Part shown: piece by piece, positions 30,876 to 58,082 of the stretch | Layout: each line of letters starts with the position of its first letter | How positions within the stretch are numbered: position 1 is the stretch's first letter | Assembly (NCBI GenBank): GCA_963808235.1 | Contig: CAWEEQ010000004.1 | Location: 781,084-845,083 of the forward strand | Source of the DNA: an uncultured delta proteobacterium | GTDB taxonomy: Bacteria; Desulfobacterota; Binatia; Binatales; Binataceae | Direction of reading: 5' to 3' | Length of the DNA: 64,000 nucleotides | Notes under the pieces: generated by a model | Told to the model about the DNA's origin: nothing | Database searches by the model: none | Seen by the model: only the letters and a program-made list of their open reading frames with translations | Position numbers and translations under genes: made by a program

Positions 30876-31153
30876 TTCGCTGTATGACGTCACAGCTCAA
30901 ACGGTCGAAATCCTCGCGGTCGTCGCGAAATCAGAACTGTCGCGCTTTCCGCGGTTGGCAGAGAGGGCCAGGGGATCGAAATCTGGTTAAATTCAAGCCA
31001 TGAGCGGTGATGAAGGGAATATGGGGATCCGCCAAAAGGGTTTCACTGATACAAGAGCAATAATGAGGCTGCTTAAGGCTTGACTAATTTCTTGTCTTGC
31101 TCCATAGTGATGCTGCCACCGAAAGGGCGGGCAAAAACGGGGAAGGTAGGATA

Positions 31154-31399
31154 ATGCAACGATCACGAGAAAATGATGAGACTCAGCCGGAATTCTATAC
31201 TGTCGGCCAGCTCGCGGACTTGCTCCAACTGACGCCGATGACGATATACCGGATGGTCAGACGCGGCGAGCTCGCCTGTCATGCGATCGGGCGAATCAAA
31301 CGCTTTCGCCGCGGCGACGTAGAGACGTTCCTCGAGAATTCCAGGCAGCCGGCCTCGGAAGCCACCGCGGCTCCGGCTCCTCGCCGTCTCGATGGCTGA
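31154..31399 (+). CDS. Excisionase-family (MerR-superfamily) HTH DNA-binding protein, paralog 1
   Basis: EFYTVGQLADLLQLTPMTIYRMVRRGELACHAIGRIKRFRRGDVETFLE. The start was chosen by homology with paralog 2 and because GGAAGG lies 8 nt upstream. The ORF track extends to 31097. Confidence 0.7.
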   Translation: MQRSRENDETQPEFYTVGQLADLLQLTPMTIYRMVRRGELACHAIGRIKRFRRGDVETFLENSRQPASEATAAPAPRRLDG

Positions 31400-31663: not shown

Positions 31664-31882
31664 ATGCAACGCTCACGTCCGAAAGAAGACGCCCAGCCCG
31701 AGTTCTACACCGTTGGACAACTTGCCGATTTGCTGCAACTCACACCCATGACCATTTACCGCATGGTCAGGCGCGGCGAGTTGGCTTGTCACGCGATCGG
31801 TCGCATCAAGCGTTTCAGACGCGGCGATGTCGAGGCTTTTTTACAAAGCTCGAGGAAACCAGCGGCAAGCGCACCAAGCTAA
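31664..31882 (+). CDS. Excisionase-family HTH DNA-binding protein, paralog 2
   Basis: 72 aa. The core is almost identical in protein sequence to paralog 1 but is encoded with many synonymous differences. Confidence 0.7.
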   Translation: MQRSRPKEDAQPEFYTVGQLADLLQLTPMTIYRMVRRGELACHAIGRIKRFRRGDVEAFLQSSRKPAASAPS

Positions 31883-32103
31883 GACTTGCTCGTCTTACGC
31901 TCGGCGCCTGAATCGCCGTTGGTTTGGTGTTCCGGTTCCCTGGCTACGCTCCCGCCCGCCGCGACCCATTGATCGACGACTGGCACTTCAAAGCGCAGAT
32001 CCCGTCCAACTCTAATAGCCCGCAACTGGCCTCTTCGCACCAGCCTGCGAACGGTAGCCGGATTGACATGCAGGTAGTCGGAAACCTCACGCAATGTGAG
32101 CAT
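31879..32103 (-). CDS. Excisionase-family HTH DNA-binding protein, paralog 3 (convergent)
   Basis: MLTLREVSDYLHVNPATVRRLVRRGQLRAIRVGRDLRFEVPVVDQWV. AAGGA precedes the internal ATG at 32103. The ORF track extends to 32160. Confidence 0.65.
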   Translation of the reverse strand: MLTLREVSDYLHVNPATVRRLVRRGQLRAIRVGRDLRFEVPVVDQWVAAGGSVAREPEHQTNGDSGAERKTSKS

Positions 32104-32160
32104 CCTTGCTGGCATATGCTCGCCCCTGGCTGACTCCATTCGACCCGGATTCATCCGCAA

Positions 32161-32511: not shown

Positions 32512-33252
32512 GTGAGAAAAAAAACCATGAAACGAAAACTATTGGTCATAGCTCTTCTGTGTTGTGCGCAGCTTCTGTTCGGATGCTCCGCGAAGGACCC
32601 GGAGGCTACCGATATCAAGGGTGTGTCGATGGCGCCGGTGTCGCCTGCCTGCCAATTCACTTCGGTCGACGACCAGTTTCGATCATACCGGATTCAGCCG
32701 GGCGACCAGCTCGACATCAGTTTTTATATGAGCCCCGAGTTTGACCAGGACCTGACCGTACGACCCGACGGCGACATCTCGATGCCGGTGGTCGGCAATA
32801 TTCACGTGCAGGGACTAACCCCGGTCGGGCTCGAGAAGAATCTCAATCAGCTCTATTCGCAGGAGTTGAAAGATCCGAAGACCACGGTCCGCATCGACAA
32901 GAGTCCAAGCCAGGTCGTGTACGTCGAGGGCCAGGTTGGCAAACCCGGCGCGGTGCCGCTGCAGCCCGGGATGACCGCGATCCAGGCGATCGCCGCGTCG
33001 GGCGGAATGAACGATAACGCCGGACCGAGCCGGGTGATTCTCATAAGACGCGACGCGTGCGGGAACGCGCACGGGCAGCCTCTCAAGCTCGACAAAGTGC
33101 TGAACCAGAAAAATAACGAAGAAGATGTGGCGCTGCTGCCTTCGGACATCGTGGTCGTACCGCGCAGCGGGATTGCCCAATTCGATCTCGACGTGAAGCA
33201 GTACGTGCGCGACGCGATGCCGGTCGAAGTCTACGCCGCGCCGCCATTTTGA
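32512..33252 (+). CDS. Polysaccharide export protein (Wza/EpsE-like, SLBB domains)
   Basis: Lipoprotein-type signal peptide LLVIALLCCAQLLFGCS. Poly_export and SLBB motifs IQPGDQLDISFY...GDISMPVVGNIHVQGLT. Confidence 0.85.
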   Translation: MRKKTMKRKLLVIALLCCAQLLFGCSAKDPEATDIKGVSMAPVSPACQFTSVDDQFRSYRIQPGDQLDISFYMSPEFDQDLTVRPDGDISMPVVGNIHVQGLTPVGLEKNLNQLYSQELKDPKTTVRIDKSPSQVVYVEGQVGKPGAVPLQPGMTAIQAIAASGGMNDNAGPSRVILIRRDACGNAHGQPLKLDKVLNQKNNEEDVALLPSDIVVVPRSGIAQFDLDVKQYVRDAMPVEVYAAPPF

Positions 33253-33262
33253 GCCGAGTGGG

Positions 33263-34786
33263 ATGAATCAGATGAACAACGAAGCTGTAATGCAGTGGAT
33301 AGAGAAGATATTCCGGCGCCGGGCGTTGGCGCTCCGGATAGGCCTGCTGGTCTTCGGCGTAATCGCGCTGGGCTCGATCATGTGGCCCCCGAGCTACGCG
33401 TCGTCGTCGAAAATCCTGGTTCAATCCAACCGCGCGCAACTGCTGGTCTCGCCCGGGCTGAAGGAAGACGCCGCCAATCAATCGACCCAAACGGTTCCGG
33501 TGGCGGAGCAGGACCTCAACTCGGAGGTCGAGCTGCTGACCAGTCCGTTCCTTATTAAGCAGGCGCTCGCGGGGATGAAGCTCAATCAACGCAAGGGCGG
33601 CGTGATCGCGGGAATGCGAAACATTGTCGACGCGGTCGTCAGCGTCCCGACAGACGTGTACACGGTGCTGCACGGAGGCCCCAGCGCGACTGCGAACCAG
33701 GACGAGATTCAGAAAATCGTGAATCATCTCAGCGCGGACGTGATCAAGCGCTCGAATGTTATCGAGGTTTCGATTGTCTCGCACGATCCCGCGTGGGCGA
33801 AAGCGTTTCTCTCGCAATTGATGACTTCATACCTGAACCTGCACGGGCAGTTGTCGCAGAATCCGCAGGCGCAGGCATTTTTCCAGCAGCAGCGCGCGCT
33901 GCTCGATCAGCGCCTCCAGGACTCAGAGAAGGAGTTGCGCGCGGCGCAACTGCAGACCGGAATCGCTCAATTCAGCGAGCAGCAGCAGGCGCTCATCAAC
34001 CAGGTGTCCGCCGCCGAGGCGAACTATCGCACCACCAGCGCCTCTCTGGATTCCAAGCTGCAGCAGATCAGGAGCCAGGAAGCCGAGTTGAAGCAGACTC
34101 CGCAGCGTCAGACCAAGGAATCGAAGTCGGTCCAGAACATGGCGCTCAGCCAGTTGAAGCCGCAGATGCTTCAACTCGAAACCGAGCGTGCCGAGTTGTT
34201 GAGCCGCTATCAGCCCACCAGCGAGAGAATCCGTGCGATCGACGCCAAGCTGAAAGCCGGCCAAATCATCCTGAGCCGCGAAGATAAGACCAACGTCCAG
34301 GAAACCACCACCGATGTGAATCCGACCTGGCAGGCGCTCGATGCCGATTTGGCCAAAGCGCGGGCCGAAGCCGCGTCGGATAAGGCGGCGCAGACCACTG
34401 AAGCGGCGCAAGTCGCAACGTTACAGAATCAGCTCAAACAGATGACCACGGATGGAGTCGAGATCGAACGCCTGCAGCGCAAAGTCGATAGCGACAAGGA
34501 AGCGTACATGTCGTACGTGCGCAAGGGCGAGGAGGCCCGCGCGGCCGAGGCTCTTAACCAAAGCCGGATCCTGAACGTGAGCGTGGTGCAGGATCCGACC
34601 ACTCCGATCGATCCGGTGTCGCCGCGAATCCGGTTGAATCTGATCGCCGGGCTCCTGTTTGCCCTGATGCTGGCGGTCGCCGCGGCGCACTGGACCGAGG
34701 AATACGATCCCAAGATTTGTTCGACCGCGTCGATATTCAAGGACACCGGGCTCAGCACGGTCGCGATCCTCGACGACAGGTTGTAG
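33263..34786 (+). CDS. Polysaccharide chain-length determinant protein (Wzz/GumC/EpsF-like, PEP-CTERM-locus type; no kinase domain)
   Basis: TM1 near the N-terminus, a long periplasmic coiled-coil and TM2 near the C-terminus (LIAGLLFALMLAVAAAHW). There is no Walker motif. Confidence 0.8.
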   Translation: MNQMNNEAVMQWIEKIFRRRALALRIGLLVFGVIALGSIMWPPSYASSSKILVQSNRAQLLVSPGLKEDAANQSTQTVPVAEQDLNSEVELLTSPFLIKQALAGMKLNQRKGGVIAGMRNIVDAVVSVPTDVYTVLHGGPSATANQDEIQKIVNHLSADVIKRSNVIEVSIVSHDPAWAKAFLSQLMTSYLNLHGQLSQNPQAQAFFQQQRALLDQRLQDSEKELRAAQLQTGIAQFSEQQQALINQVSAAEANYRTTSASLDSKLQQIRSQEAELKQTPQRQTKESKSVQNMALSQLKPQMLQLETERAELLSRYQPTSERIRAIDAKLKAGQIILSREDKTNVQETTTDVNPTWQALDADLAKARAEAASDKAAQTTEAAQVATLQNQLKQMTTDGVEIERLQRKVDSDKEAYMSYVRKGEEARAAEALNQSRILNVSVVQDPTTPIDPVSPRIRLNLIAGLLFALMLAVAAAHWTEEYDPKICSTASIFKDTGLSTVAILDDRL

Positions 34787-34791
34787 CCGAT

Positions 34792-36375
34792 ATGTATTAC
34801 GAACACTTCAGACTTAGCGGCGCTCCCTTCGAGTTCAATCCCTCGGCGTCGGTGCTCTTCATGAGCGCGGGGCATCGCGAAGGATTGGCGGCGCTCGAGT
34901 GGGGACTGTCCGAGCCGAGCGGATTCACGATGCTGGTCGGCGAGATCGGGACCGGCAAGACCACGCTCATCTACTCGCTGCTCGCGACGCGGCATCAGGG
35001 CGTCCGGACCGCGTGGGTGGCGAATCCGCGCTTAAGCTTCGAAGACATGATGCGCCAGATTTTGGGCCAGCTGGGCGCAGTTGCGCCGGAGACGTCGGGC
35101 AAGCTCGCGCTGCTGCAGGCGTTCGACGCGCAGCTCGCGAGCCATGGGCTCGAAGAGTGCGTGGCGGTGATTGTCGACGAGGCGCAGGACCTGAGCGACG
35201 ACGCGCTGGAAGATCTGCGCCTGTTGACCAACTTTCAATCGCTCGAGCGCAGACGCCTGCAAATAGTGCTGGTCGGTCAGCTCGATCTCGCCAGAAGGCT
35301 GGGGCGGCCGCAACTGCGCCAACTGAATCAGCGAATCGGTGCGCGCGCGCTGTTGCCGACTCTGCAGGACCGGGAGATTTACGACTACGTCGAATACCGG
35401 CTGCGCTCGCGCGGCGGAGATATCGAGAACCTGTTCACGCGGAGCGCGATGCGGGAGCTCGCGCGCGCGAGCGGCGGAATCCCGCGGCGGATCAACATGC
35501 TTTGCCACAACGCGATGCTGCAGGCATACGCGGACGGCGAGCAATTCGTCGCCGAAAAGCATGTGCGTGCCGCCGCCAGCGACTACGATAATTTGCTGGT
35601 CGGCAAAGATTCGGCGTCCGCGAAGATGGCCGCATCGGCGAGCGCGGCGATGCAATCCGCGAGCACAAAGATACGGTCGGCGAGCGCGTCGATGCATTCA
35701 TCGGCGGTCTCGATGGCGCCGGCGATGCGTTCGGGCGCGACCAAGGCGGTTCGCGCGTTGAGCGCGGCGGCAACATTCGGGGCGCTGAGCTTGCTCGGCG
35801 TAGCGGTAGTCGGATTTTGCGAGATGCAGCCGGTGCACAATGATCTTTCCGCGCTGGTCAGGAAATTCGAATCGAAAGCGGCGAGTTTCAGAAGGCCAAT
35901 CGTGGTGCAGCGGGCGCCGGCGCAGTTCGTGACCGGTTCGTCCCCGGCGACCGTTCCGGCGCCGAACACAATTGGTTCGGCTCCAGCGGCCGTTCATGAC
36001 AGCACCGCCCCGGGCGCCCACGAATTGAGTACGCGCGGACACCTCAGGGGTCTTTCGGCGACTGGCCGGCGGGTTCCAGTCAAGCCGCAACCTGAAGCGA
36101 GCGCCGTTCCCAATATTTTGCCGGTGACGTTGTCGCCGGTCGGAAATATTTCCGCATCTCCGGATTCTTCGACGAAACCAGATGACGGCGCCTTGCGCAC
36201 CGACTCGACCATTTTGGTCAGGGCGGGCGACTCGCTCAGCAAGATAGCGATGAGAATCTATGGTTCGTTCGGAGCCGATGAAGTTAAGCGATTGACCGCG
36301 GCGAATCCGCAAATCAAGGACGCGAACGTGATCTATCCCGGTCAGTCTATTCACGTGCAGCAAGCTACCAAATGA
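34792..36375 (+). CDS. AAA ATPase of the XrtA/PEP-CTERM-associated (ExeA-like) type with C-terminal LysM domain
   Basis: Walker A VGEIGTGKTT, Walker B AVIVDEAQ and a sensor region. The C-terminus ILVRAGDSLSKIAMRIYG...VIYPGQSIHV is a LysM motif. The real start is the ATG 6 nt after the upstream stop; the ORF-track start at 34717 lies inside the previous gene. Confidence 0.75.
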   Translation: MYYEHFRLSGAPFEFNPSASVLFMSAGHREGLAALEWGLSEPSGFTMLVGEIGTGKTTLIYSLLATRHQGVRTAWVANPRLSFEDMMRQILGQLGAVAPETSGKLALLQAFDAQLASHGLEECVAVIVDEAQDLSDDALEDLRLLTNFQSLERRRLQIVLVGQLDLARRLGRPQLRQLNQRIGARALLPTLQDREIYDYVEYRLRSRGGDIENLFTRSAMRELARASGGIPRRINMLCHNAMLQAYADGEQFVAEKHVRAAASDYDNLLVGKDSASAKMAASASAAMQSASTKIRSASASMHSSAVSMAPAMRSGATKAVRALSAAATFGALSLLGVAVVGFCEMQPVHNDLSALVRKFESKAASFRRPIVVQRAPAQFVTGSSPATVPAPNTIGSAPAAVHDSTAPGAHELSTRGHLRGLSATGRRVPVKPQPEASAVPNILPVTLSPVGNISASPDSSTKPDDGALRTDSTILVRAGDSLSKIAMRIYGSFGADEVKRLTAANPQIKDANVIYPGQSIHVQQATK

Positions 36376-36393: not shown

Positions 36394-37254
36394 ATGAGTA
36401 GATACTTTCAGGCAATGGAACGCCGCAAGAACGGAATGGTTCCGTTAACTGATTCCAGGATAGGTGATGCGAGAATCGCTGATTCCAACTTCGCTGATTC
36501 GAAGGTCGTTGAGTCGAAGATCATCGATTCCAAGATCATCGAGACCAAGACCAAGCCGTTCTCACACTCACAGGCTGTAGCGCGAACTCAGCCGATGGCG
36601 CTTCCGTCTGTTTCGGAGCCGCAAGGGTTGCTCGATACGCTCGCATGCTGCCATTCGATGCGCAGCTTGAGCGAGCAGCTGGCGGCGGCGAGCGCGCACA
36701 ATGGCCCTGCGCGAATACTCATGACCGGATGCCGGCCGGGCGACGGCGTATCCACCGTGGCTGCGGCGATGGCGCTCGACATAAGTCAGCGCCTGGCGGC
36801 GCGGACAGTGCTGGTAGAAGGACAGCCGCGAGTCACGATGATGCATCCGTTCTTCGCGCGCTCTTGCGCGCCAACTCCCGCGACGATCACGAGCGCGTCG
36901 ATCGCCGTGCAAGGAACCGGATATCCGCGGCTCGAGACGGCGCGGCCGGAGCAGTTGGCGCTAGCGGACCAACCGGCACGGCTGGTGGAAGATCTGGACG
37001 AATTACTTATGCGCTATCGCCTGGCGGTTATAGATCTCGGCGTAGTGCGTTTGGACCCACGAATGTTAGCGCTGGCGCGGCCCACCGATCCGATCCTGAT
37101 TGTGGCCCGACATCTGCATACAGATCGAGCGGAAATGATCGCGACGGCAAACATCCTGCGCTCTACCGGACATCCCGTAGCTGGGGTGATTCTGAATGGA
37201 TACAAGTCGCCGTTGCCATCGCTGGTTCGCCGCCTTGTTGGAATGGAGGAATAA
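36394..37254 (+). CDS. BY-kinase-like (CpsD/CapB/MinD-fold) protein with degenerate Walker A and N-terminal pentapeptide repeats
   Basis: The C-terminal half aligns to the BY-kinase catalytic domain (MTGCRPGDGVSTVAAAMAL...VLVEGQP...LAVIDLGVV...ILIVARH...VAGVILNGY). The Walker A Lys is replaced (GDGVST instead of GxGKST/T) and there is no C-terminal Tyr cluster. Confidence 0.6.
   Translation: MSRYFQAMERRKNGMVPLTDSRIGDARIADSNFADSKVVESKIIDSKIIETKTKPFSHSQAVARTQPMALPSVSEPQGLLDTLACCHSMRSLSEQLAAASAHNGPARILMTGCRPGDGVSTVAAAMALDISQRLAARTVLVEGQPRVTMMHPFFARSCAPTPATITSASIAVQGTGYPRLETARPEQLALADQPARLVEDLDELLMRYRLAVIDLGVVRLDPRMLALARPTDPILIVARHLHTDRAEMIATANILRSTGHPVAGVILNGYKSPLPSLVRRLVGMEE
36451..36555 (+). 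repeat. Seven tandem 15-nt (5-codon) repeats inside the 36394..37254 CDS
   Basis: The units gattccaggataggt / gatgcgagaatcgct / gattccaacttcgct / gattcgaaggtcgtt / gagtcgaagatcatc / gattccaagatcatc / gagaccaagaccaag encode DSRIG-DARIA-DSNFA-DSKVV-ESKII-DSKII-ETKTK. Confidence 0.85.
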
Positions 37255-37257
37255 GCA

Positions 37258-38379
37258 ATGGAAGATCTTATCTCGCACAATGGTACTCTAGCCGGTTCAC
37301 ACAACGGCATTCACGCGCCATCAAGTGTGCCTACCTACTCAACTCGGCGCCAAATGCGCGGGATTGCGATTGTTGGGCTCGGCTACTGGGGGCCCAACTG
37401 GGTGAGAAATTTTTCCCAGATACAGGGAATCGACCATGTCGTGTGCTGTGACTTCAGCCGCCCGCGGCTCGATCACATCAAGGGACGTTACCCATCGGTA
37501 GTCATTACCGACCAGCTAGACCGGGTGCTCACCGATCCCGCGATCGACGCGGTCGTAGTTGCTACGCCGGTTAACACTCACTTTGAGATAGCAAGTCGAT
37601 GCCTGAAGGCAGGTAAGTCGACGCTGGTCGAGAAGCCACTGGCTACCTCATGCGACCAGGCAGAGCTTCTAATAAAGATGGCGCGCGAGCGCGATCTGAC
37701 GCTTATGGCGGGCCACACCTTCGAGTACAGCGCGCCGGTGGTGAAGATTCGCGAGCTGATCGACAGCGGCGAGCTCGGCGATATTTTCTACATCAGCTCG
37801 GTGCGCGCGAATCTCGGGCTCTTTCGCCGCGACGTCAACGTGGCCTGGGATCTGGCTACGCACGACATCTCGATCATCCTGATGCTGCTGGGCGAGATGC
37901 CGCTTGAGGTGACTTGCCAGGGCGAGAGCCACTATCACGATCACGTCGAAGACGTTGCGCTGCTCACGCTTCGCTTTGCCAACAACGTGATCGCTTTCGT
38001 GCACGTTAGCTGGCTCGATCCGAACAAGATTCGGCGCACAACTATAGTAGGTTCGCGCAAGATGCTGGTGTACGACGACACGGCGTTGCAGGAAAAAGTC
38101 CGCGTCTACGATAAGGGCGTCACCAAGCATCCTTACTACGACACTTATGGAGACTTTCAGCTTTCATATCGTTACGGCGACGTGAATATCCCGCGGATCG
38201 ACGACCCGGAGCCGCTCAAGGTGGAATGCGATCACTTTATTGAATGCATCAAGAGCGGGATTGCACCGAACAGCGACGGACTGAGCGGACTTAGAGTAGT
38301 GAAGGTGCTGGAAGCAGCCGACCGTTCGCTCAAGAGTCACGGAAGGCCGATAGCGCTTACTCCAACCAGGGTGAACTAG
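37258..38379 (+). CDS. Gfo/Idh/MocA family oxidoreductase (WbpB-like UDP-sugar 3-dehydrogenase candidate)
   Basis: Rossmann motif IAIVGLGYWGPNWV, an EKP motif and the Gfo/Idh/MocA C-terminal domain. GGAGG lies 6 nt upstream of 37258. An internal Met at 37354 is an alternative start. Confidence 0.8.
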   Translation: MEDLISHNGTLAGSHNGIHAPSSVPTYSTRRQMRGIAIVGLGYWGPNWVRNFSQIQGIDHVVCCDFSRPRLDHIKGRYPSVVITDQLDRVLTDPAIDAVVVATPVNTHFEIASRCLKAGKSTLVEKPLATSCDQAELLIKMARERDLTLMAGHTFEYSAPVVKIRELIDSGELGDIFYISSVRANLGLFRRDVNVAWDLATHDISIILMLLGEMPLEVTCQGESHYHDHVEDVALLTLRFANNVIAFVHVSWLDPNKIRRTTIVGSRKMLVYDDTALQEKVRVYDKGVTKHPYYDTYGDFQLSYRYGDVNIPRIDDPEPLKVECDHFIECIKSGIAPNSDGLSGLRVVKVLEAADRSLKSHGRPIALTPTRVN

Positions 38380-38411
38380 CACACACCACTTAGATGTAGC
38401 ACTGAAAGAAT

Positions 38412-38924
38412 GTGAGAACTGAGATGTCACCGCACGAACTACCACCCAACGTATGCGCCTCGGCCGACGTGATCCTGGGCGAGGAGGTCCAATTAGCACC
38501 TTTCGTAAATCTATACGGATGCAGCGTCGGAGACGCGTCGCGAATCGGCGCCTTCGTGGAAGTTCAGCGCGACGCGCACATCGGCAAGCGCTGCAAGATA
38601 TCGAGTCACACTTTCATTTGTTCCGGCGTCACTATTGAAGATGAGGTTTTCATCGGTCACGGGGTGCTGTTCATCAACGATCGGCATCCACGCGCGACCA
38701 ACCCCGACGGCACCTCCAAGACCCCGGACGATTGGGTGATGGAGCGCACTTACGTGCGGCGCGGCGCCTCGATTGGGAGCGGTGCGATCATCATGTGCGG
38801 CGTCGAGATTGGCGCGAGATCGATGGTCGCAGCCGGTGCGCTAGTGACCAGTGACGTTCCCGCGCGAGCAACTGTCCTAGGTATACCGGCACGTCTATAT
38901 ACCGGCCAGCGCCGGTCCGCATAG
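38412..38924 (+). CDS. Hexapeptide-repeat (left-handed beta-helix) N-acetyltransferase, WbpD/WlbB-like
   Basis: 170 aa with repeated [LIV]G-x4 hexapeptides (IGAFVEV, IGKRCKI, IGHGVLF, IGSGAII, IGARSMV). Confidence 0.75.
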   Translation: MRTEMSPHELPPNVCASADVILGEEVQLAPFVNLYGCSVGDASRIGAFVEVQRDAHIGKRCKISSHTFICSGVTIEDEVFIGHGVLFINDRHPRATNPDGTSKTPDDWVMERTYVRRGASIGSGAIIMCGVEIGARSMVAAGALVTSDVPARATVLGIPARLYTGQRRSA

Positions 38925-38941
38925 ATCAGGAGTCGAACGAG

Positions 38942-40078
38942 ATGCCAATCAAATTTTTGGACCTCGCGGCACAGAACCGCGAAATCATGCCACAAGTCGA
39001 GCGCGGCTTCGCGGAAATCCACGAGAAGACTTCGTACGTTGGAGGCCCACAGGTGGCGGCGTTCGAAGAGGAATTTGCGAACTTCCTGGGCGCCCGCCAG
39101 GTGATCAGCGTGGCGAGCGGGACCGACGCGCTAAGACTCGCGCTGCTCGCGATCGGAATCGGGCCGGGCGACGAAGTGATCACGACTCCGATGACGTTCA
39201 TCGCGACTGCCGAAGCGATCGTGCAGACCGGCGCGCGGCCCTCGTTTGTGGATATCGATCCGAACACCGGAAATATGAGTGTTCCGGAAATCTCGCGCTA
39301 CCTCGAGCGGGGACGCTTCACAGCGCCCAACGGCCCGCGCGCGATCGTCCCGGTTCATCTCTACGGAATGCCGGCGCCGATGATCGAAATGCGCGATCTC
39401 GCGCAGGCGTGCAACCTTAAACTGATCGAGGACGCATGCCAGGCGCATGGCGCGCGCATCACTCACGACGGCCAATCGCAATATGCCGGCACGATCGGCG
39501 CGGCCGGTTGCTTCAGTTTTTATCCCGGTAAGAATCTGGGCGCGTGGGGCGAAGGCGGGGCCGTGGCGACCAATGACGAGGAGCTGGCGGCGCAGATCCG
39601 TACGTTACGCGACCACGGACGCCTTTCGCACTACGCGCACAGTGCATATGGATACAATGCGCGGCTCGACACGATGCAGGCGGCGGTACTCCGTCCGAAG
39701 CTCGAGCGCCTGGCGGAGTGGAATGCACGACGCCGGCACTTCGCGGCGCTTTATCGTGAAACTCTGCCTCACGAGGTGGAGCTGCTGTCCGAGCCCGAGG
39801 GTATCGAGTCGTGCTACCACCTGTTCGTCATCCGCAGCGAGCGGCGAGACGCGATCAGAACCGCGCTGCTGCAAAACCAGATCGAGTGCGGGATCCATTA
39901 CCCGGTTCCGCTTCATCTACAGCCGGCATGCCGCGACCTCGGATATGCGCAAGGAGATTTTCCGCACGCCGAGACGATGGCTGACACCGTGCTGTCATTG
40001 CCGATGCATCCCTTTCTGACCGAGCGCGAAGTTAAGACGGTCAGCCAGGCAGTCAAGCGCGCATTAACCACAGGTTGA
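38942..40078 (+). CDS. DegT/DnrJ/EryC1/StrS family aminotransferase (WbpE-like)
   Basis: A PLP-fold signature including FSFYPGKNLGAWGEGGA (the Lys-containing active-site region). 378 aa. Confidence 0.85.
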   Translation: MPIKFLDLAAQNREIMPQVERGFAEIHEKTSYVGGPQVAAFEEEFANFLGARQVISVASGTDALRLALLAIGIGPGDEVITTPMTFIATAEAIVQTGARPSFVDIDPNTGNMSVPEISRYLERGRFTAPNGPRAIVPVHLYGMPAPMIEMRDLAQACNLKLIEDACQAHGARITHDGQSQYAGTIGAAGCFSFYPGKNLGAWGEGGAVATNDEELAAQIRTLRDHGRLSHYAHSAYGYNARLDTMQAAVLRPKLERLAEWNARRRHFAALYRETLPHEVELLSEPEGIESCYHLFVIRSERRDAIRTALLQNQIECGIHYPVPLHLQPACRDLGYAQGDFPHAETMADTVLSLPMHPFLTEREVKTVSQAVKRALTTG

Positions 40079-40085
40079 TAATGTT

Positions 40086-41600
40086 GTGTTAGGCGGGGAA
40101 TTACAGCGTCAGAAGGCGCTACTTGCGGCCACCGACGCGCTAGCAGTCGTCGGCGCGTGTGCACTGTCGCAAGCCATCAGGAACCACGATTTATACCCCC
40201 TGGACCCAGGCAACTGGGGCGAGGCGCTGGCGGGCATGGCGATGCTGGGTGTGATCTGGATACTGGTCGCGCGCGCGGTCGGGCTGTATCGAAACGGGCG
40301 GCGGCACGAAGTCAAGTCGATCGTGAAGGCGAGTTGCGCGGCGTGGTTCACGATGGTGTCGATCAGCTTTTTCCTGCATCTGGCGCCATCGCGGCTGGTG
40401 GTAGGCATCGGACTGGCGCTGACGATTGGTTTTGTCGTAACGGCGCGGATGCTGGTCCGCCGCTGCATCAAGTTTTTTTATTCGCGCCCCGAGTTCGCGG
40501 TGCCGCTGGTCATCGTTGGGGTCAATTCGTTCGGTGTTTACCTGCGTGATCGAATCAAGGAAGAGCTCACGCAGTACGAATTCCTGGGCTTTGTAGATGA
40601 AAACCCGGTCCCGCTCGCATCCAACGGTGTGAACGGGCACAGCGGCACCAACGGACACGACGACGCGAATCGGCACAACGGGCATTCCAAAACGAACGGA
40701 CATTTTGGATCGACCGGGCTCGCCACTCCGGCGCCGGTAATCGGAAGCCTCGAACGCATCGCGAGTCTCGCAATCGTACATCCCAACCTTGAGGCGGTGA
40801 TAGTTCTTCCCGAGCGCGACCACAGCCAGGTCGAGCGTATCATTAAGCTTTGCGAGCGTTATCGAGTTCGCTGGCGGATGATGCCGCGAGTTGCGGAATC
40901 GATGGCTCTGACGGTGGAGATGGTCGGCGCGATTCCGCTGATTGGGCCTCCGGGATCGAACATCGAAGGGCTCAACTGCGTGGTAAAGCGCGGCTTCGAT
41001 GTCGTGGTGGCGAGCCTCCTGCTGCTGCTTGCGTCGCCGCTCTTGATGTTCGCGGCGATTGCGATCTGGCTCACCGACGGACATCCGTTGCTGTTTCGCC
41101 AGACCAGGGTCGGTATCCACGGCACGCCGTTCGAACTGCTGAAATTTCGCACGATGCGCACCGAGTGCTCCGACACGGTGCATCGCGAGTACGTCAAAGA
41201 ATGGATTCAGCGCAATGCGGCCGAGGGGTCGGAGCCCAACGGCGCCAAGGTTTATAAGATCGGCAGCGATCCGCGGATTACGCCGATCGGACGATGGCTG
41301 CGGCGCTTCAGCATCGACGAGCTGCCGCAACTGATCAACGTCCTTTACGGGAACATGAGTCTCATCGGACCGCGGCCCGCGATGCCGTACGAGCTCGAGC
41401 TGTACCAGGAATGGCATCGGCATCGGCTCGACGCGCCGCCGGGAATCACCGGGCTGTGGCAGGTCAGCGGACGCAATCGTCTGTCGTTCGACGAAATGGT
41501 GCAGCTCGACATCGAATATATCGAAGACTGGTCGCTCGCGGGCGACATGGGAATCCTGCTGCGGACGCTGCCCGCGATGCTGCAAGGGAATGGAATGTGA
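40086..41600 (+). CDS. Exopolysaccharide priming polyprenyl-phosphate glycosyl-1-phosphate transferase (WbaP/CpsE-like bacterial sugar transferase)
   Basis: GTG start. N-terminal TM helices and a C-terminal Bac_transf domain (LLFRQTRVGIHGTPFELLKFRTM...DELPQLINVLYGNMSLIGPRP). An NGH-rich low-complexity insert lies between them. Confidence 0.85.
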   Translation: MLGGELQRQKALLAATDALAVVGACALSQAIRNHDLYPLDPGNWGEALAGMAMLGVIWILVARAVGLYRNGRRHEVKSIVKASCAAWFTMVSISFFLHLAPSRLVVGIGLALTIGFVVTARMLVRRCIKFFYSRPEFAVPLVIVGVNSFGVYLRDRIKEELTQYEFLGFVDENPVPLASNGVNGHSGTNGHDDANRHNGHSKTNGHFGSTGLATPAPVIGSLERIASLAIVHPNLEAVIVLPERDHSQVERIIKLCERYRVRWRMMPRVAESMALTVEMVGAIPLIGPPGSNIEGLNCVVKRGFDVVVASLLLLLASPLLMFAAIAIWLTDGHPLLFRQTRVGIHGTPFELLKFRTMRTECSDTVHREYVKEWIQRNAAEGSEPNGAKVYKIGSDPRITPIGRWLRRFSIDELPQLINVLYGNMSLIGPRPAMPYELELYQEWHRHRLDAPPGITGLWQVSGRNRLSFDEMVQLDIEYIEDWSLAGDMGILLRTLPAMLQGNGM

Positions 41601-43114
41601 TGGCGGCGCCGGGTGACATCAGCTCCGTAGCGAACGTCGAGGGTTGGCATTCGCCGGCCTTCGCGCGGGGCGTGCGTGACAACGTTATTGGCGAGGTCGG
41701 TCTGCAGGCAGTGCGGATCGGCGGATTGGTGGTGCTCGCGCGCGCGCTGGCGCCTTCGGACTTCGGACTGTTCAGAGTCCTGATCACGATTAGCGCAATC
41801 ATAATGATGGTCAATGATTTGGCGATGCCCGACACGCTCGTGCAGCGCCAGGAGCTCAGCAGCGCGCACGAGAGCTCTGCGTGGTGGGCGACGATCGCGG
41901 TATCGGCGTTGAGCTGCGCGGTGATCTACCTGGTCGCACCGTTGATTGCGCAAGCGATGGCGATGCCGACGATTACGGGCGCGCTGCGCCTGCTATGCAT
42001 CCCGATTCTGCTCGAAGGCTCGGTGACCGTACCGATCGCGAGGCTCACGCGCAAATTGCAATTCCGCACCCTTGCGATCGCCGAGGTCGTTGGCGAGCTG
42101 GCGTTCCTGGGCGTTGCGATCGCGCTGCTCGTGATGGGTCATCCTAGACTGAGCCTGGTCGGTGGCCTGTGTGCGCGGATGGGCGCGCATGCACTGCTTC
42201 TCTGGTGCGCTGAGCCGTACATCCCGCGAGTAGGACCAAGCCGCAAGGCGCTGCTCGAGCTGCGAGGCTTCGCGAGTGGCGCGATGGGCGGCCAAATCTT
42301 TCACGCGATTTCCTGCAACATCGACTACCTGCTGGTGGGACGCACGCTCGGAAGTTCCGCGCTTGGGTTTTACGGGATGGCGTGGGACCTGCTTCGTTTC
42401 GTTCCCGACCGGCTCTACAAAATCGCTGGCCGCGTGACGGTTCCCGCGTTCGCCCGCATGCAACATCAGCCCGAGCAACTGCGGCGCGCCTACTTGAGCT
42501 TTCTCGATTACATGTGCCGGCTGATCGTGCCGCCGCTCGTATGTATTGCGATCGCGGCGCCCGAACTGTTGCGCCAGATTTACGGACCGCAGTGGATTGC
42601 GGCCGCGCTTCCGCTGCGCATCCTGAGCTTCGGAATAATTACTATCGGGCTACGTTCGGGAATGGGCGCGGTTTTCTATTCGCTGGGACGCCCGGTATTC
42701 GAAATGTATCTGTATGCTATCCGATTCGTGCTGATCGCAGTAGCGGTGTTGGTCTCGGCATCGAGTGGATTGCTGTGGGTCTGCGCCGCTGTCAGCGCGG
42801 TCGAGGGCGCGTGCACCGTTATCGGCCAGCTGGCCGCATGCCGCCTGCTGGACGTCGGCCTCGTAAAAGTATCGCGCGCGCTCATTTCCGGATTCACGAC
42901 TGCGGCAGGCTGCGCGGCTGCGACCGTAGGCGGCAGAATGCTGGCGAACAATCTCGGTATCGGCGGCCTGTTGGAACTGTCGATGATGGTTGCGCTTCCG
43001 GCGCTCGCGTTCCTTCTAATCGAAGCTCGCACCGTTCGCGAGATGCTCAGCAGCGCGCTCGGCTCCGTAAGCGTCGACAGTCCACTTCCCGAAACCGGCC
43101 AGGAGCGGGCCTAG
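41600..43114 (+). CDS. Polysaccharide flippase (Wzx, MOP superfamily)
   Basis: 504 aa with about 12-14 TM helices. The start ATG overlaps the upstream TGA (tgATGg). The ORF-track start at 41294 is an out-of-frame extension inside the previous gene. Confidence 0.75.
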   Translation: MAAPGDISSVANVEGWHSPAFARGVRDNVIGEVGLQAVRIGGLVVLARALAPSDFGLFRVLITISAIIMMVNDLAMPDTLVQRQELSSAHESSAWWATIAVSALSCAVIYLVAPLIAQAMAMPTITGALRLLCIPILLEGSVTVPIARLTRKLQFRTLAIAEVVGELAFLGVAIALLVMGHPRLSLVGGLCARMGAHALLLWCAEPYIPRVGPSRKALLELRGFASGAMGGQIFHAISCNIDYLLVGRTLGSSALGFYGMAWDLLRFVPDRLYKIAGRVTVPAFARMQHQPEQLRRAYLSFLDYMCRLIVPPLVCIAIAAPELLRQIYGPQWIAAALPLRILSFGIITIGLRSGMGAVFYSLGRPVFEMYLYAIRFVLIAVAVLVSASSGLLWVCAAVSAVEGACTVIGQLAACRLLDVGLVKVSRALISGFTTAAGCAAATVGGRMLANNLGIGGLLELSMMVALPALAFLLIEARTVREMLSSALGSVSVDSPLPETGQERA

Positions 43115-43115
43115 C

Positions 43116-44291
43116 ATGGCGCGAGTACTAATAATCGCGTACACGGCCTACGCGCGCGACGGACGCGTCAAGCGGCAGGCCGAAGCATTGACCAGCCGCG
43201 GCGATCGGGTTGACGCGATCTGCCTTGCCGACGGCAATGTCGCCGACACGCACGGAGTCAACGTCACCGGACTCAGGCTTCCGCGCTATCGTGGCGCAAG
43301 CAGAATTAACTACCTGCGAAGCTATATAAACTTCTTCGCCCGCGCGGCTGCGCTTGCGGTTCGACGCAGCATGAAGGAGCGCTACGATATAGTGATCGCC
43401 TGTACGATGCCCGATGCGGCAATACTAAGTGCATTACCATGTCGGTTGTTTGGATCGAAGTTAGTACTCGATGTCCACGATACCATGCCGGAGCTGTATC
43501 TCGACAAGTTTGGCGGCCGGCTGGGGCGAATCGGCGCGCGGATGCTGATGCTTCAGGAGCGCTTGAGCGCGCGACTCGCGGACCAGGTGCTGGCAGTGCA
43601 CGATTTGCACGCTGAACGCCTGCATCAATCCGGGATACCGGAACGCAAGCTGGTGGTGATTACCAACTCGCCCGATCCGCGAATTTTCCCGGTCGCGGAT
43701 TCGAATCAGCCGCGCCGAATCCGGCCGAACGATGAACCATTTTCGATCATCTGCCATGGAACAATTACCCGCAGGCTCGGGCTGGATACTGCTCTGGCGG
43801 CGTTAGCCCTGCTGCACGAGCGATTTCCTCTCATCCGGCTCAAGGTTATAGGCGCCGGCGATCATTTGAACGAGGTCAAGACTCTCAGCCGGCAACTCGG
43901 CGTCGAGTCCGCGGTCAGTTTCGAACCTCCAGTTCCGATTCAGGAACTGGCCTGCAAAATCGGCGAGGCTCACGTCGGACTGGTTCCCAACCATGCCTCG
44001 AGCGCGACGCATCTGATGCTGCCGGTCAAGCTGCTTGAATATGTGGCGGTCGGAATCCCGGTGATATGTGCTCGTTTACGAACCGTCGAGCATTACTTCG
44101 ACGAAAGATCGGTGCGTTATTTTTCTCCGAACAACGCATCGCAACTGGCGCACGCGATCGAGGATTTGTACCTCGATCCGGCGCTACGAGATAGCCTTTC
44201 GAATTCCGCGGCAAAAGTGGTTAAGAGCTTCAGCTGGCCCGTCCATAGCCAGCGCTTCTGCAATGCGGTCGATTCGCTACTCAACGTTTAG
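43116..44291 (+). CDS. Glycosyltransferase family 4 (GT-B fold)
   Basis: 391 aa. An N-terminal Glyco_trans_4-like region and a C-terminal Glycos_transf_1 core (E-x7-E region around LLEYVAVGIPVICA). Confidence 0.75.
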   Translation: MARVLIIAYTAYARDGRVKRQAEALTSRGDRVDAICLADGNVADTHGVNVTGLRLPRYRGASRINYLRSYINFFARAAALAVRRSMKERYDIVIACTMPDAAILSALPCRLFGSKLVLDVHDTMPELYLDKFGGRLGRIGARMLMLQERLSARLADQVLAVHDLHAERLHQSGIPERKLVVITNSPDPRIFPVADSNQPRRIRPNDEPFSIICHGTITRRLGLDTALAALALLHERFPLIRLKVIGAGDHLNEVKTLSRQLGVESAVSFEPPVPIQELACKIGEAHVGLVPNHASSATHLMLPVKLLEYVAVGIPVICARLRTVEHYFDERSVRYFSPNNASQLAHAIEDLYLDPALRDSLSNSAAKVVKSFSWPVHSQRFCNAVDSLLNV

Positions 44292-44304
44292 GAGGAGTTA
44301 TCAA

Positions 44305-45120
44305 GTGCGCAGCGCAATACCATTGGTAGTAGGCTTGGGCGAAGTCGGAAGCGCCTTGTCGCAAGTGCTGAAGGGCGACGGCCGGCGCATCCTCGAGCAC
44401 GACATCGAAAGACGCGAGTTCGACGAACCGATCAGCGTGATGCATCTGTGTTTTCCATTCACCCGGCAGGATGCTTTCGAAGCTATCGCGCTTTCCTATA
44501 TCAAGCGGTTCAAGCCGGAACTGACTATCATCAACAGCACTGTAGTTCCCGGAACCAGCCGGTCGATAGCTGAAAAAGCGTCGGCGCCGGTTGCCTATAG
44601 TCCGGTGCGCGGCAAACACATCCGAATGGCGCAGGACCTGCTGAAGTACCGCAAGTTCGTCGCTGGCACCGATGATGAGACCACGAATCGAGCTGTCGAG
44701 CATTTTCGCGAAGCCGGAATGACTACTCAGTGCATTAGCAAGTTGGAGACTCTCGAGCTTGCCAAGCTCGGTGAGACTACCTACTTCGGCGTGCTGATCG
44801 CCTTCGCACAGGAGCTCAACCGTTACGCTAATCGGGTCGATGCTGACTATGTGGAAGCGCTGGACCTGTTCGAGGAAGTCGATTTTCTGCCGCCCACGAA
44901 ATACTACCCGGGCTTCATCGGCGGTCACTGTGTGATTCCAAATATACAATTGCTGCGCACGATTGCGTCGTCGCCACTGCTCGAGGCGGTCCTCGAATCC
45001 AACCGGATGCGCGCGGGCGAGTTGGCCAACGAAGCCAAGATGGCCCTCACGCCCGAACTCAAGCCGGGCGCTGCCGCCAACGGACACAAAACGGAGTCGC
45101 AGGCTCAGCTGCGTCGCTGA
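44305..45120 (+). CDS. NAD(P)-binding protein resembling the N-terminal and central domains of UDP-glucose/GDP-mannose dehydrogenase (short form, no C-terminal UDP-binding domain)
   Basis: GTG start with AGGAGG 8 nt upstream. The Rossmann motif VVGLGEVGSAL, the central-domain pattern LELAKLGETTYFGVLIAFAQELNRYANRVDADYVEAL and GFIGGHCVIPN (a catalytic-Cys-like motif) are present. It has only 271 aa, against about 430 for the full-length family. Confidence 0.45.
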   Translation: MRSAIPLVVGLGEVGSALSQVLKGDGRRILEHDIERREFDEPISVMHLCFPFTRQDAFEAIALSYIKRFKPELTIINSTVVPGTSRSIAEKASAPVAYSPVRGKHIRMAQDLLKYRKFVAGTDDETTNRAVEHFREAGMTTQCISKLETLELAKLGETTYFGVLIAFAQELNRYANRVDADYVEALDLFEEVDFLPPTKYYPGFIGGHCVIPNIQLLRTIASSPLLEAVLESNRMRAGELANEAKMALTPELKPGAAANGHKTESQAQLRR

Positions 45121-45139
45121 CGGCAGCCAAGAAGTGAAA

Positions 45140-46570
45140 ATGGAACTCGTGCAGACAGCCAGAGTATCCAAACCGCCGGCCGCCGCGATGCTGGCCGGTG
45201 TGGCGGGGCTTGGCCTGCTCGGCTTGCTGATGCTCAACTATCCGAGCCTCGCGGCCGGCGCGGTGGTCCTTGCCGGCGGAGTCGCGGTCATTTGGGCGGC
45301 CCAGATGGTGCAGGGCAACACTGGCTACCTGCTTTGCTCGCTCCTGGTTATTGAAGAGCTGAGCGGGGCAAACTTTATCCCGCTCACACCCGATCAGCTC
45401 TACCTGGTCCGTTATCCATTGCTGGTTGCATTTTGCGGAGCCTCCGTGTGGAAGGCGCTCCATGACAAAGAGATATGGCGGGGCGGATTCCTTGATTACC
45501 TGATCTATCTTGGTTTTGGCGTTATAAGTATTTCCTATTCACTATTGCCTGGCTATTCGACCGCCAGGATTGCAGCTGCAATTCTGATGTTCATGACGAT
45601 AGTCAGAATTGCCCAAGCAGTAGCTAATCGCGAAGATATCGAGAAGCTACTCAATTGGTATCTGATCGGAACCGGAATCGTCTGGCTGGTGATACTGATC
45701 TGCTCGCTGACCATGTCTTACGATCTGATCTGGGACGTGGAAGACATGACCGGCATTGTTCGCCTGCGCGGCATCTACGGTTCTCCGAATCTGATTGGCG
45801 AAATCGCACTCCCCACCATGGGCGTGGCGGCGGTCATGTGGAACTCGGCCAGCGGATGGAAACGGGCGCTGCTCGCCGCGGAGATAATGCTGGCGGTCAC
45901 GCTCGCGATGCTGGCCGATTCGCGATCGCCATTCATCGGTTTCGGACTCGGCGGGCTCCTCTATTTGATTTGGAGATACCGGTTCCGCGCGGTGCCGATC
46001 ATTCTCGCGCTCGGAGTGGTGGGCTTCGGCCTAATTAGTCAGCTCAATCCCGAGTATCTCAGTCGTGGCGACGTTACCAGTCTCACCGGACGCACCGACA
46101 TCTGGAAGTTTGCGATCGAGAAAATCGAGCAACGTCCGCTGATCGGATATGGCTTCGAGGTCGAAGGCGAAATCATGAAGGCCCACGACTTTCCGATCTG
46201 GTGGGGACCGTGGGAGGAAGGCCCGCGCAGTTCCATCCACAGTGATTATCTGTCGAAGGCGGTCAGCCTCGGCGTCCCGGCGCTGATATTTTGGGTATTT
46301 TTCATCATCCGTCCGTGGCTCGCGCTGCTCCGGCGCAAGGACGATCCGTGGAATCTGAAACCGCTCTTGTTTCTCGTTGTCATTCCGATCCTGATTCTAG
46401 ATTTCACTGAGGCCACCGGCGACTGCCGTTATGCAGTAGGGACGATCGCGACGCTTGGTTGGGCGCTGGCGGAAAGGCAACGACTCGCGAACTTGCGCCG
46501 CCGTCCCGCGGCGCTCCAGCCGGCAGAGCCGATCAACCCGGCGACACCGCTGCTGCGGCGAGTAGGTTAA
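45140..46570 (+). CDS. O-antigen ligase/polymerase-like (Wzy_C domain) integral membrane protein
   Basis: 476 aa with about 10-12 TM helices and a large periplasmic loop (Wzy_C-like). The start is an internal ATG. The ORF-track start at 44963 lies inside the upstream gene. Confidence 0.65.
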   Translation: MELVQTARVSKPPAAAMLAGVAGLGLLGLLMLNYPSLAAGAVVLAGGVAVIWAAQMVQGNTGYLLCSLLVIEELSGANFIPLTPDQLYLVRYPLLVAFCGASVWKALHDKEIWRGGFLDYLIYLGFGVISISYSLLPGYSTARIAAAILMFMTIVRIAQAVANREDIEKLLNWYLIGTGIVWLVILICSLTMSYDLIWDVEDMTGIVRLRGIYGSPNLIGEIALPTMGVAAVMWNSASGWKRALLAAEIMLAVTLAMLADSRSPFIGFGLGGLLYLIWRYRFRAVPIILALGVVGFGLISQLNPEYLSRGDVTSLTGRTDIWKFAIEKIEQRPLIGYGFEVEGEIMKAHDFPIWWGPWEEGPRSSIHSDYLSKAVSLGVPALIFWVFFIIRPWLALLRRKDDPWNLKPLLFLVVIPILILDFTEATGDCRYAVGTIATLGWALAERQRLANLRRRPAALQPAEPINPATPLLRRVG

Positions 46571-46584
46571 CGGATGTGGGCGAC

Positions 46585-47385
46585 ATGAGGCAGAGGACTA
46601 ATAATCTTCCGATACTGATGTATCACGCGATCTGGTCGGGCGCGGACGGTGCGATCCCCAGGACGTCGAGCATCGAGCACGCTGTAAAGGATCGTGACTT
46701 CCGCGCGCAACTCGATGCGATCGTCAGTGGCGCGTTTCACACCATCAAGCTCGCCGACCTCGAGCATCCGGTTGATGCGCCGAAGCCGCTGTTGATCACC
46801 TTCGATGACGGCCATGAAAGCGACTTCACCATCGCCGCGCCCGAGCTCGCGCGGCGAAATCTGCACGCAATCTTTTTTGTCGTATGGTCCTACCTCGGAC
46901 AGCCCGGCTATCTGAGTCGAGAACAAGTGCTCGCGTTGCGTGAGCAAGGATTCGAAATCGGTTCGCATGGACTGACCCACGTCCCGCTCAGCAAGATAAG
47001 TCCGGCGCAAGCGTCGAACGAAATCCTCGAATCGAAGCACAGACTGGAAGACTTGCTCCAGCAGCCAATCGCAGGGCTTGCGCTTCCGTTCGGCCATTAC
47101 AACGATGCGGTGCTGAAAGCCGCGTGGGCCGCCGGCTATCGCCGGGTGATGACCTCGGACTTCAGGATTGCCAATCGGGAGCATCGGATCATGCCGCGGA
47201 TGGGACCGATGGCTGAGCATACGCTGGAGGATTTCAAGTGGATGCTCGAAGCGAGTCGTGCAGCCGCGATTCGTCATCGCACGATTGAGGCGATTGGTGA
47301 GCGGTTGAAACGCTTTATCAGCTATGGAGAGGCGCTGCTGATGCGCGCCCAGAATGGGGAGGTTCTAGCCAAGCCCGAGAAATAG
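46585..47385 (+). CDS. Polysaccharide deacetylase family protein (NodB homology, PEP-CTERM-locus type)
   Basis: NodB motifs LITFDDGHESDF and IGSHGLTHVPL. The start was chosen at the first ATG after the upstream stop. Confidence 0.75.
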   Translation: MRQRTNNLPILMYHAIWSGADGAIPRTSSIEHAVKDRDFRAQLDAIVSGAFHTIKLADLEHPVDAPKPLLITFDDGHESDFTIAAPELARRNLHAIFFVVWSYLGQPGYLSREQVLALREQGFEIGSHGLTHVPLSKISPAQASNEILESKHRLEDLLQQPIAGLALPFGHYNDAVLKAAWAAGYRRVMTSDFRIANREHRIMPRMGPMAEHTLEDFKWMLEASRAAAIRHRTIEAIGERLKRFISYGEALLMRAQNGEVLAKPEK

Positions 47386-57914: not shown

Positions 57915-58030
57915 AAATGTCACTGTGGAGACATTTAGATAGTCAATAACGATAGTCAGAACCAGGCTGGAACGAGGTCCGATAGTAGGCGCTGGCTGTA
58001 GATTGCCGGGGAATTGGGTTTTTTAAGCCA

Positions 58031-58064
58031 GGCACCGCGTGTTGCCTTTAGTGGTCGTGGTGCC
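58031..58064 (+). promoter_or_regulatory. 5'-leader inverted repeat GGCACCGCG-N16-CGTGGTGCC, 18 nt upstream of the ATG of paralog C
   Basis: Homologous to 55722..55755, with three substitutions that all preserve base pairing. Confidence 0.6.
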
Positions 58065-58082
58065 GGGCTTGGGGGAGAAAAA

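Follow-up and report, generated by a model that had tools for sequence, protein, structure and literature searches.

The recognition of pseudokinases of the bacterial tyrosine kinase (BY-kinase) type as a functional class is recent, and two examples have been studied: EcpK of Myxococcus xanthus, which has been tested experimentally together with EpsV, a type 2 polysaccharide co-polymerase (PCP-2) without a kinase domain, and, to a lesser extent, HfsB, from the HfsB/HfsA pair of the Caulobacter crescentus holdfast (Blocher et al., J Bacteriol 2025, PMC12004946). In that paper, a phosphorylation-independent scaffold model is proposed for both EcpK and HfsB; the CapA tail is described as binding CapB, and the tails of EpsV and HfsA are predicted to bind EcpK and HfsB, respectively; the second Asp of the Walker A' motif is named as the residue that initiates phosphorylation; and an analysis by Cuthbertson et al. 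is cited for more examples of a kinase-less PCP-2 with a pseudo-BY-kinase. GumC has also been termed a 'pseudo-BY-kinase' (PMC9800525). The combination of a kinase-less PCP-2 and a stand-alone pseudo-BY-kinase is thus already described, in EcpK/EpsV and HfsB/HfsA. Here we analyse a gene for a BY-kinase-like pseudokinase at 36394..37254 (+; 286 residues, stop codon included in the coordinates) in a window of 64,000 nucleotides (nt) of DNA from an uncultured delta proteobacterium of the Binatia (assembly GCA_963808235.1, contig CAWEEQ010000004.1, positions 781,084 to 845,083); all coordinates are those of the window, and + and - denote its strands. An original prediction, made from the DNA letters, had proposed a pseudokinase with a BY-kinase-like C-terminal domain and an N-terminal array of pentapeptides.

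We found that this protein is a member of a conserved family and not a case of local decay. It probably acts as a stand-alone BY pseudokinase, that is, as a phosphorylation-independent cytoplasmic scaffold or partner of the kinase-less PCP-2 encoded two genes upstream.

The domain that carries this assignment (residues 79-286; 36628..37251, +) has the BY-kinase fold, of the MinD/SIMIBI P-loop type, in the AlphaFold2 (AF2) model. The model, built on 69 homologues, contains a confident alpha/beta domain at residues 79-282, with a predicted local distance difference test (pLDDT) score above 90 over most of it. When we compared the model to the PDB with Foldseek, the top 50 matches were BY-kinase catalytic domains only (Wzc, CapB, BceF, VpsO and Etk), with a best E of 1.8e-9, a Foldseek probability of 1.00 and ~200 aligned columns at 17-22% identity, in agreement with the C-terminal domain of the original prediction. 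The sequence signal for BY-kinases, over residues ~86-272, is weak: TIGR01005 matched at 4e-6, TIGR01007 at 2e-5 and EpsG at 7e-5, all far below the curated cut-offs (25.3 vs 412 bits, 24.1 vs 108 bits and 22.2 vs 314 bits, respectively), and the model of the XrtA-associated tyrosine autokinase, TIGR03018, gave 16.8 bits against a cut-off of 230.65. The sole Pfam match, to AAA_26, was sub-threshold, and a phmmer search of PDB sequences found CapB (4jlv; 5e-5), VpsO (1e-3) and Wzc (6e-3). At the other end of the protein, the model has a helix at residues 3-12 (RYFQAMERRK; 36400..36429, +), in which Y4, A7 and R10 hardly vary among family members. The N-terminus MSRYFQAMERRK is common to homologues, which fixes the start codon of the gene.

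Residue-level alignment to CapB was used to place the catalytic motifs. The degenerate Walker A segment, GCRPGDGVST (36727..36756, +), aligns with SEKPGAGKST of CapB, and Val119 (36748..36750) occupies the position of the Walker A Lys, so that the reading of GDGVST as a P-loop without this Lys was borne out. This state is shared throughout the family, in which the position is held by Ala (80), Val (77), Thr (9), Ser (4), Cys (2) or Leu (1) and by Lys in 0/173 members. The degenerate Walker A' segment, TVLVEGQPR (36805..36831, +), aligns with LVIDGDMRK of CapB; here the Arg is kept and DxD has become ExQ, as proposed from VLVEGQPR. The first acidic residue is D or E in 161/171 family members, and the second Asp is replaced by Q, H or N, with D in 2 members only. 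The EX2RX2R oligomerisation motif of helix alpha2 reads HSMRSLS, with the central Arg kept (113/165 family members) and the last Arg replaced by Ser. The Tyr cluster, likewise said to be missing, was not found: the last 25 residues hold one Tyr (Y270), other family members have 0-1, and in place of the Tyr tail there is a short basic C-terminal helix (LVRRLVG, residues 276-282; pLDDT about 70 in the AF2 model).

The loss of motifs is partial, however, since the P-loop scaffold and the Walker B Asp are retained. Within the P-loop, G112, P115, G116, Asp117, G118, Ser120 and Thr121 are nearly invariant in the family, as is Arg114. The Walker B strand LAVIDLG (37021..37041, +; IIVDTPP in CapB) keeps Asp214 (161/162), and Asn268, the base-binding Asn, is retained (151/156) in the GVILN strand that precedes the C-terminal helix (strand and helix, 37183..37239, +). 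A canonical GK[ST] motif elsewhere in the protein would have been at odds with the proposed P-loop, and we searched all six frames of the open reading frame (ORF) for G-x(0,1)-K-[ST]; the sole near match, GYKS at 268-271, lies in the last beta-strand region and is not a P-loop. Thus, of the features of a BY-kinase the protein has the MinD-like P-loop fold and the Walker B Asp, and lacks the Walker A Lys, the Walker A' DxD, an intact EX2RX2R motif, the Tyr cluster and scores above the curated cut-offs; of the features of a BY pseudokinase it has the fold without catalytic residues or Tyr tail, the basic C-terminal helix and a cluster with a kinase-less PCP-2. From these motifs we infer that catalysis has probably been lost.

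We compared this protein with EcpK and HfsB by their published descriptions. EcpK is likewise a stand-alone cytoplasmic protein with the BY-kinase fold, without the Walker A Lys or a Tyr tail and with a basic C-terminal helix, and it too belongs to a Wzx/Wzy-dependent exopolysaccharide (EPS) cluster with a kinase-less PCP-2. EpsV has 507 residues and a cytoplasmic tail of ~25 residues, compared to 507 residues and a tail of ~30 in the co-polymerase found here. In contrast, EcpK has lost all three Walker motifs together with alpha1, alpha2, beta1, beta4, beta5, alpha6 and alpha7, whereas the Binatia protein keeps the full domain and, unlike EcpK, has the P-loop scaffold, the Walker B Asp, the base-binding Asn, the N-terminal helix and a repeat spacer. 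Moreover, ecpK does not adjoin epsV, whereas the Binatia genes are separated by a single ATPase gene only. HfsB is also a stand-alone pseudokinase, in which catalytic residues and a Tyr tail are absent. It goes with a kinase-less PCP-2, HfsA, and the prediction is that the last ~27 residues of HfsA bind HfsB; it differs in lineage and in polysaccharide, its C-terminal helix is predicted to contact the first transmembrane segment (TM1) of HfsA, and neither a repeat spacer nor the N-terminal helix is among the HfsB features reported in the sections of the EcpK paper drawn on here. The canonical split BY-kinase systems, CapB/CapA of S. aureus, EpsG/EpsF and the TIGR03018 plus TIGR03007 pairs, resemble the Binatia system in fold, in a bipartite layout with a PCP tail and in locus type. 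A split PCP and kinase is the normal layout in XrtA/PEP-CTERM-type and Gram-positive loci, and the split proposed in the original prediction is no special event in this cluster. The P-loop of the Binatia family, PG[DE]G-x-[ST]T, follows the canonical BY-kinase pattern save for the Lys; relative to the canonical split kinases, the Lys has become Val or Ala, and the second Walker A' Asp, EX2RX2R and the Tyr cluster are gone. The Lys-less states of EcpK/HfsB and of the Binatia family probably arose by independent loss within the BY-kinase superfamily.

A database search yielded 184 relatives of the pseudokinase, and a profile search of 1.84 billion representatives gave 51 clusters (at 50% identity) at E < 1e-30; at E < 1e-3 the same search widens to the BY-kinase superfamily at large (12,795 matches). 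In the single genome scan that names organisms, on which the restriction of the family to metagenome-assembled genomes (MAGs) of Binatia rests, Binatia (Candidatus Binataceae or Binatus) accounted for all 79 loci, among them loci in MAGs labelled 'uncultured delta proteobacterium'. The dN/dS ratio (nonsynonymous to synonymous substitution rates) of the pseudokinase against six orthologues was 0.13-0.21. Since the Lys is absent family-wide and the gene is under purifying selection, the Lys-less state is ancient and selected; a decaying pseudogene is ruled out by the same ratios together with the motifs that are invariant across the family. Thus, the proposal that a kinase function had been split off and had then degenerated holds for the loss of the catalytic motifs and fails for the decay, because the Lys-less state is fixed.

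Furthermore, in several Binatia MAGs the whole cluster, Wza-like gene through flippase, is present in at least two complete paralogous copies (L001+L067; L004+L072, both on contig CAVOUW010000003.1; L008+L073). Each copy encodes a separate Lys-less pseudokinase, with ~40% identity between the two. The complete second copies indicate that the entire module was duplicated and then retained.

Absence of the Walker A Lys extends to proteins outside the family. Among the 79 nearest non-family matches, 30 also lack this Lys, 29 of them without a Tyr cluster, a count skewed by the query profile, which lacks the Lys too. These outgroup proteins from metagenomes (for example, P0186, P0211, P0241, P0249 and the fused P0231 and P0247) have Val, Ala or Thr at the Lys position, and score about 70-90 bits on the profile of the Binatia family, compared to more than 120 bits for family members. 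They end in the same LNxxxx[IL]PxW[LI]RRxL helix, and P0186 has a similar N-terminus as well (MSKLYRALERAE). They keep Walker A' as VDAN or VDAD. They are much nearer to canonical kinases than the Binatia family is, and three of them (P0186, P0211 and P0249) exceed the TIGR01007 cut-off of 108 bits. We also note that some of the outgroup Lys-less proteins (742-755 residues; P0231 and P0247) are fused to a PCP.

The genomic context of the pseudokinase is a Wzx/Wzy-dependent EPS cluster. The co-polymerase (33263..34786, +; 507 residues; Pfam GNVR and Wzz, TIGR03007 at 6e-29) is of the PCP-2 type and has no kinase domain, as had been claimed; the further claim that it is the immediate neighbour of the pseudokinase gene did not hold, because an ATPase gene (about 34792..36375, +) lies between them. 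Following its second transmembrane segment (TM2), the co-polymerase has a cytoplasmic C-terminal tail of ~30 residues (478-507; 34694..34783, +; TEEYDPKICSTASIFKDTGLSTVAILDDRL; EEYDPKICSTASIFKDTGLSTVAILDDRL), with a motif, DPxI[YC]SxxxIxxxxGLxTVAVL, that is kept in most of 75 related loci (a few of the ORFs carry a frameshift or are truncated). In 79/79 Binatia loci the genes are arranged as Wza, PCP, (ATPase), pseudokinase, sugar-modifying genes, polyprenyl glycosylphosphotransferase (PGT), flippase. A second BY-kinase-like gene was found neither in the 64-kb window nor in flanks of about 10 kb around the other loci of this set, and no phosphotyrosine phosphatase detectable with Pfam was found among the window ORFs scanned. 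The conserved tail, the absence of a kinase domain from the PCP and the absence of a nearby kinase or phosphatase support, as context, a scaffold that works without phosphorylation.

We propose that the kinase-like domain docks on the conserved PCP tail, by analogy with CapB/CapA and EcpK/EpsV. Its binding and unbinding would help the PCP to enter and leave the oligomeric state for polymerisation, and the same oligomeric state would also serve the hand-over to the Wza-like exporter, with a cycle that would run on protein-protein contacts and without a tyrosine phosphorylation cycle. Both terminal helices, the conserved N-terminal one and the basic C-terminal one, probably provide additional contacts or lie close to the membrane; the disordered pentapeptide spacer lies between the N-terminal helix and the domain, its length drifting between lineages.

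Several points weigh against this interpretation. In most loci the ATPase gene stands between the genes for the PCP and the pseudokinase, and the true partner of the pseudokinase could thus be the ATPase. Other parts of the genome might hold a gene for an active BY-kinase or a phosphatase, and knowledge of the organism comes from MAGs only. The chief puzzle, however, is the strict conservation of the remaining nucleotide site: compared to EcpK, the residues retained here suggest that the site still does something.

A nucleotide-gated switch, which we consider a serious but distinctly less likely account than a scaffold, would address this puzzle directly. The Lys-less site would bind ATP-Mg or ADP-Mg with no or very slow hydrolysis, and the nucleotide would drive an open-to-closed transition that allows PCP oligomerisation, making the protein a 'locked' BY-kinase like Wzc K540M. 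Structures of Wzc with a Lys-to-Met substitution hold MgADP (PDB 9exo, 9exq and 9i2q), and Wzc K540M closes and oligomerises with ATP-Mg (review, PMC9800525). Moreover, EcpK, an experimentally characterised scaffold, has lost all these motifs, so that the near invariance in the Binatia family of G112, P115, G116, G118, S120, T121, the Walker A' acidic residue, D214 and N268 needs explaining. Nevertheless, these residues may only maintain the fold or an interface, substitutions of the Walker A Lys commonly weaken nucleotide affinity, and Walker A' is more eroded in the window's own clade than in deeper branches (VEGQPR vs VDAHLR).

We also considered that the family might be an intermediate class between active BY-kinases and EcpK-like pseudokinases, a composite idea that we regard as unlikely. 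Here the protein would be a non-hydrolysing, nucleotide- and Mg-binding switch, turnover would be powered by the AAA+/LysM ATPase, and the spacer would set the reach of the N-terminal helix; the closed, ATP-bound state would license assembly of the PCP ring, and through the spacer, assembly or chain length might be adjusted from strain to strain.

It is improbable, in our view, that the pseudokinase is chiefly an adaptor that couples the ATPase to the PCP and Wza, with ATP turnover outsourced to this membrane-spanning, peptidoglycan-binding AAA+/LysM protein. The ATPase gene is indeed directly upstream of the pseudokinase gene in most of the 79 loci; its ExeA-like product (~528 residues; AAA_22 at 4e-22, C-terminal LysM at 2e-6) has an intact Walker A motif, GEIGTGKTT, a Ser/Ala-rich low-complexity stretch and one predicted transmembrane segment, and it matches the XrtA-associated model TIGR03015 at 1.4e-61, below the cut-off. 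We set its start at the Met where this match begins, and both the start and the transmembrane segment are a reading of the sequence. A tethering role would also fit the conserved N-terminal helix and the flexible spacer in the pseudokinase, and the ATPase may tie the export machine to peptidoglycan. But about five loci (L016, L024, L039, L057 and L060) keep the PCP and the pseudokinase without an ATPase between them, and in canonical XrtA loci an active kinase accompanies this ATPase, so that two adjacent genes need not encode partners. Finally, residual kinase or ATPase activity through a relocated basic residue (Arg114, or a residue of the PCP tail in trans) with a target other than a Tyr cluster, by analogy with WNK kinases, whose catalytic Lys has moved elsewhere, is very improbable in spite of the near invariance of Arg114 and the conservation of the rest of the nucleotide site, since Arg114 is at P-loop position 2 in the CapB alignment, where in established P-loop geometry, applied here by inference, the side chain normally faces away from the phosphates, loss of the second Walker A' Asp extends across the family, neither a Tyr cluster nor EX2RX2R is there to present a substrate in trans, and no phosphatase gene was found in the cluster.

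With a scaffold or partner of the PCP as the preferred reading, we turn to the segment that joins the N-terminal helix to the kinase-like domain. The proposed array of seven five-residue units, DSRIG DARIA DSNFA DSKVV ESKII DSKII ETKTK (residues 20-54; 36451..36555, +), was exact in coordinates, units and phase, with the pattern [DE][STA][RKN]xx. The phase is perfect, and seven acidic residues at a spacing of five were reached in 1/100,000 shuffles of the protein. At the level of DNA, the tandem 15-nt units are degenerate (9-13/15 nt match the consensus per unit); Tandem Repeats Finder recovered two sub-arrays only, of 2.9 and 2.3 copies. Residues 14-64 of the AF2 model have pLDDT below 50 and no secondary structure, so that the segment is predicted to be disordered. 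The array is not a pentapeptide beta-helix of the Pfam PF00805 type, since there is no match at E <= 0.1, no central Leu or Phe, the model is disordered there and most orthologues have a single unit.

The expectation that the number of repeats can change was supported by the orthologues, which carry 1 to 9 units; most have one (DSRTK, in proteins of 254 residues), and the nearest relatives of the window's protein have 2, 3, 4, 5, 7 or 9. An assembly error or frameshift was rejected as the source of the array: a Logan contig (run ERR10755935) is identical over 1861 nt, array included, and arrays of other lengths in orthologues stay in frame. Because most orthologues hold one unit, the array is not essential; its behaviour in these sequences is that of a dispensable spacer, prone to slippage, that joins the N-terminal helix to the domain. 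Unrelated short tandem duplications occur in the same linker of two other family members, P0161 and P0124: VPAEPRIG twice in P0161, as well as EQEPD twice and FPQQA/FPQA. The N-terminal linker is a general hotspot for repeat expansion. The spacer is a minor curiosity, a clean case of copy-number drift (1-9) in a disordered linker.

The first gene of the cluster encodes a Wza-like outer membrane polysaccharide exporter (OPX; 32512..33252, +; Poly_export at 1.7e-21, SLBB, TIGR03027 at 2.5e-35). Downstream of the pseudokinase gene are genes for a GFO-type dehydrogenase, a hexapeptide acetyltransferase and a DegT aminotransferase (37258..40078), the PGT (40086..41600, +), and then a MOP flippase, a glycosyltransferase of the GT4 type, an O-antigen-ligase/polymerase-like protein and a deacetylase (41294..47385). 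The longest flippase ORF (41294..43114, +) overlaps the end of the PGT gene by about 300 nt, and because the MOP-flippase match starts at ORF residue ~139, the true start of the flippase is probably an internal codon. The neighbours of the pseudokinase resemble XrtA/PEP-CTERM models (TIGR03027, TIGR03007 and TIGR03015), all below cut-offs, and the scanned ORFs of the window include no exosortase. Our search of the literature on Binatia EPS systems found nothing relevant. We also examined a 500-residue metagenomic protein, P0174, as a candidate 'Rosetta-stone' fusion, in which a PCP (~12-387) is joined to a pseudokinase fragment (residues 83-228); the junction leaves out TM2, the tail and the ATPase. 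A deletion or mis-assembly most likely accounts for this protein, which was not used as evidence.

Two further groups of genes flank the cluster. Upstream there are three small HTH_17 (excisionase/MerR-like) genes (31097..31399, +; 31664..31882, +; 31879..32160, -), and the two on the plus strand are near-identical over about 50 residues (EFYTVGQLADLLQLTPMTIYRMVRRGELACHAIGRIKRFRRGDVE); these genes could be duplicated regulators of the cluster. Downstream there are three large right-handed beta-helix/Big_7 proteins (53811..55274, 55773..57860 and 58014..60323, all +), which may be secreted polysaccharide-active enzymes or adhesins for the same polymer.

What is new here is a well-populated, unannotated family in Binatia, which is less degenerate than EcpK and usually accompanied by an ExeA-like ATPase. 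Its members share the conserved N-terminal helix, and in one sub-clade the pentapeptide spacer is expanding. Since some Lys-less relatives pass the TIGR01007 cut-off for a 'tyrosine autokinase', EPS loci are probably credited with more kinase activity than they have; automatic annotation would give that name to P0186, P0211 and P0249. The Binatia family constitutes a third, independent and well-populated lineage of BY pseudokinases, and since its nucleotide site is intact save for the Lys and the second Walker A' Asp, it offers a natural test of an inert scaffold against a nucleotide-gated switch.

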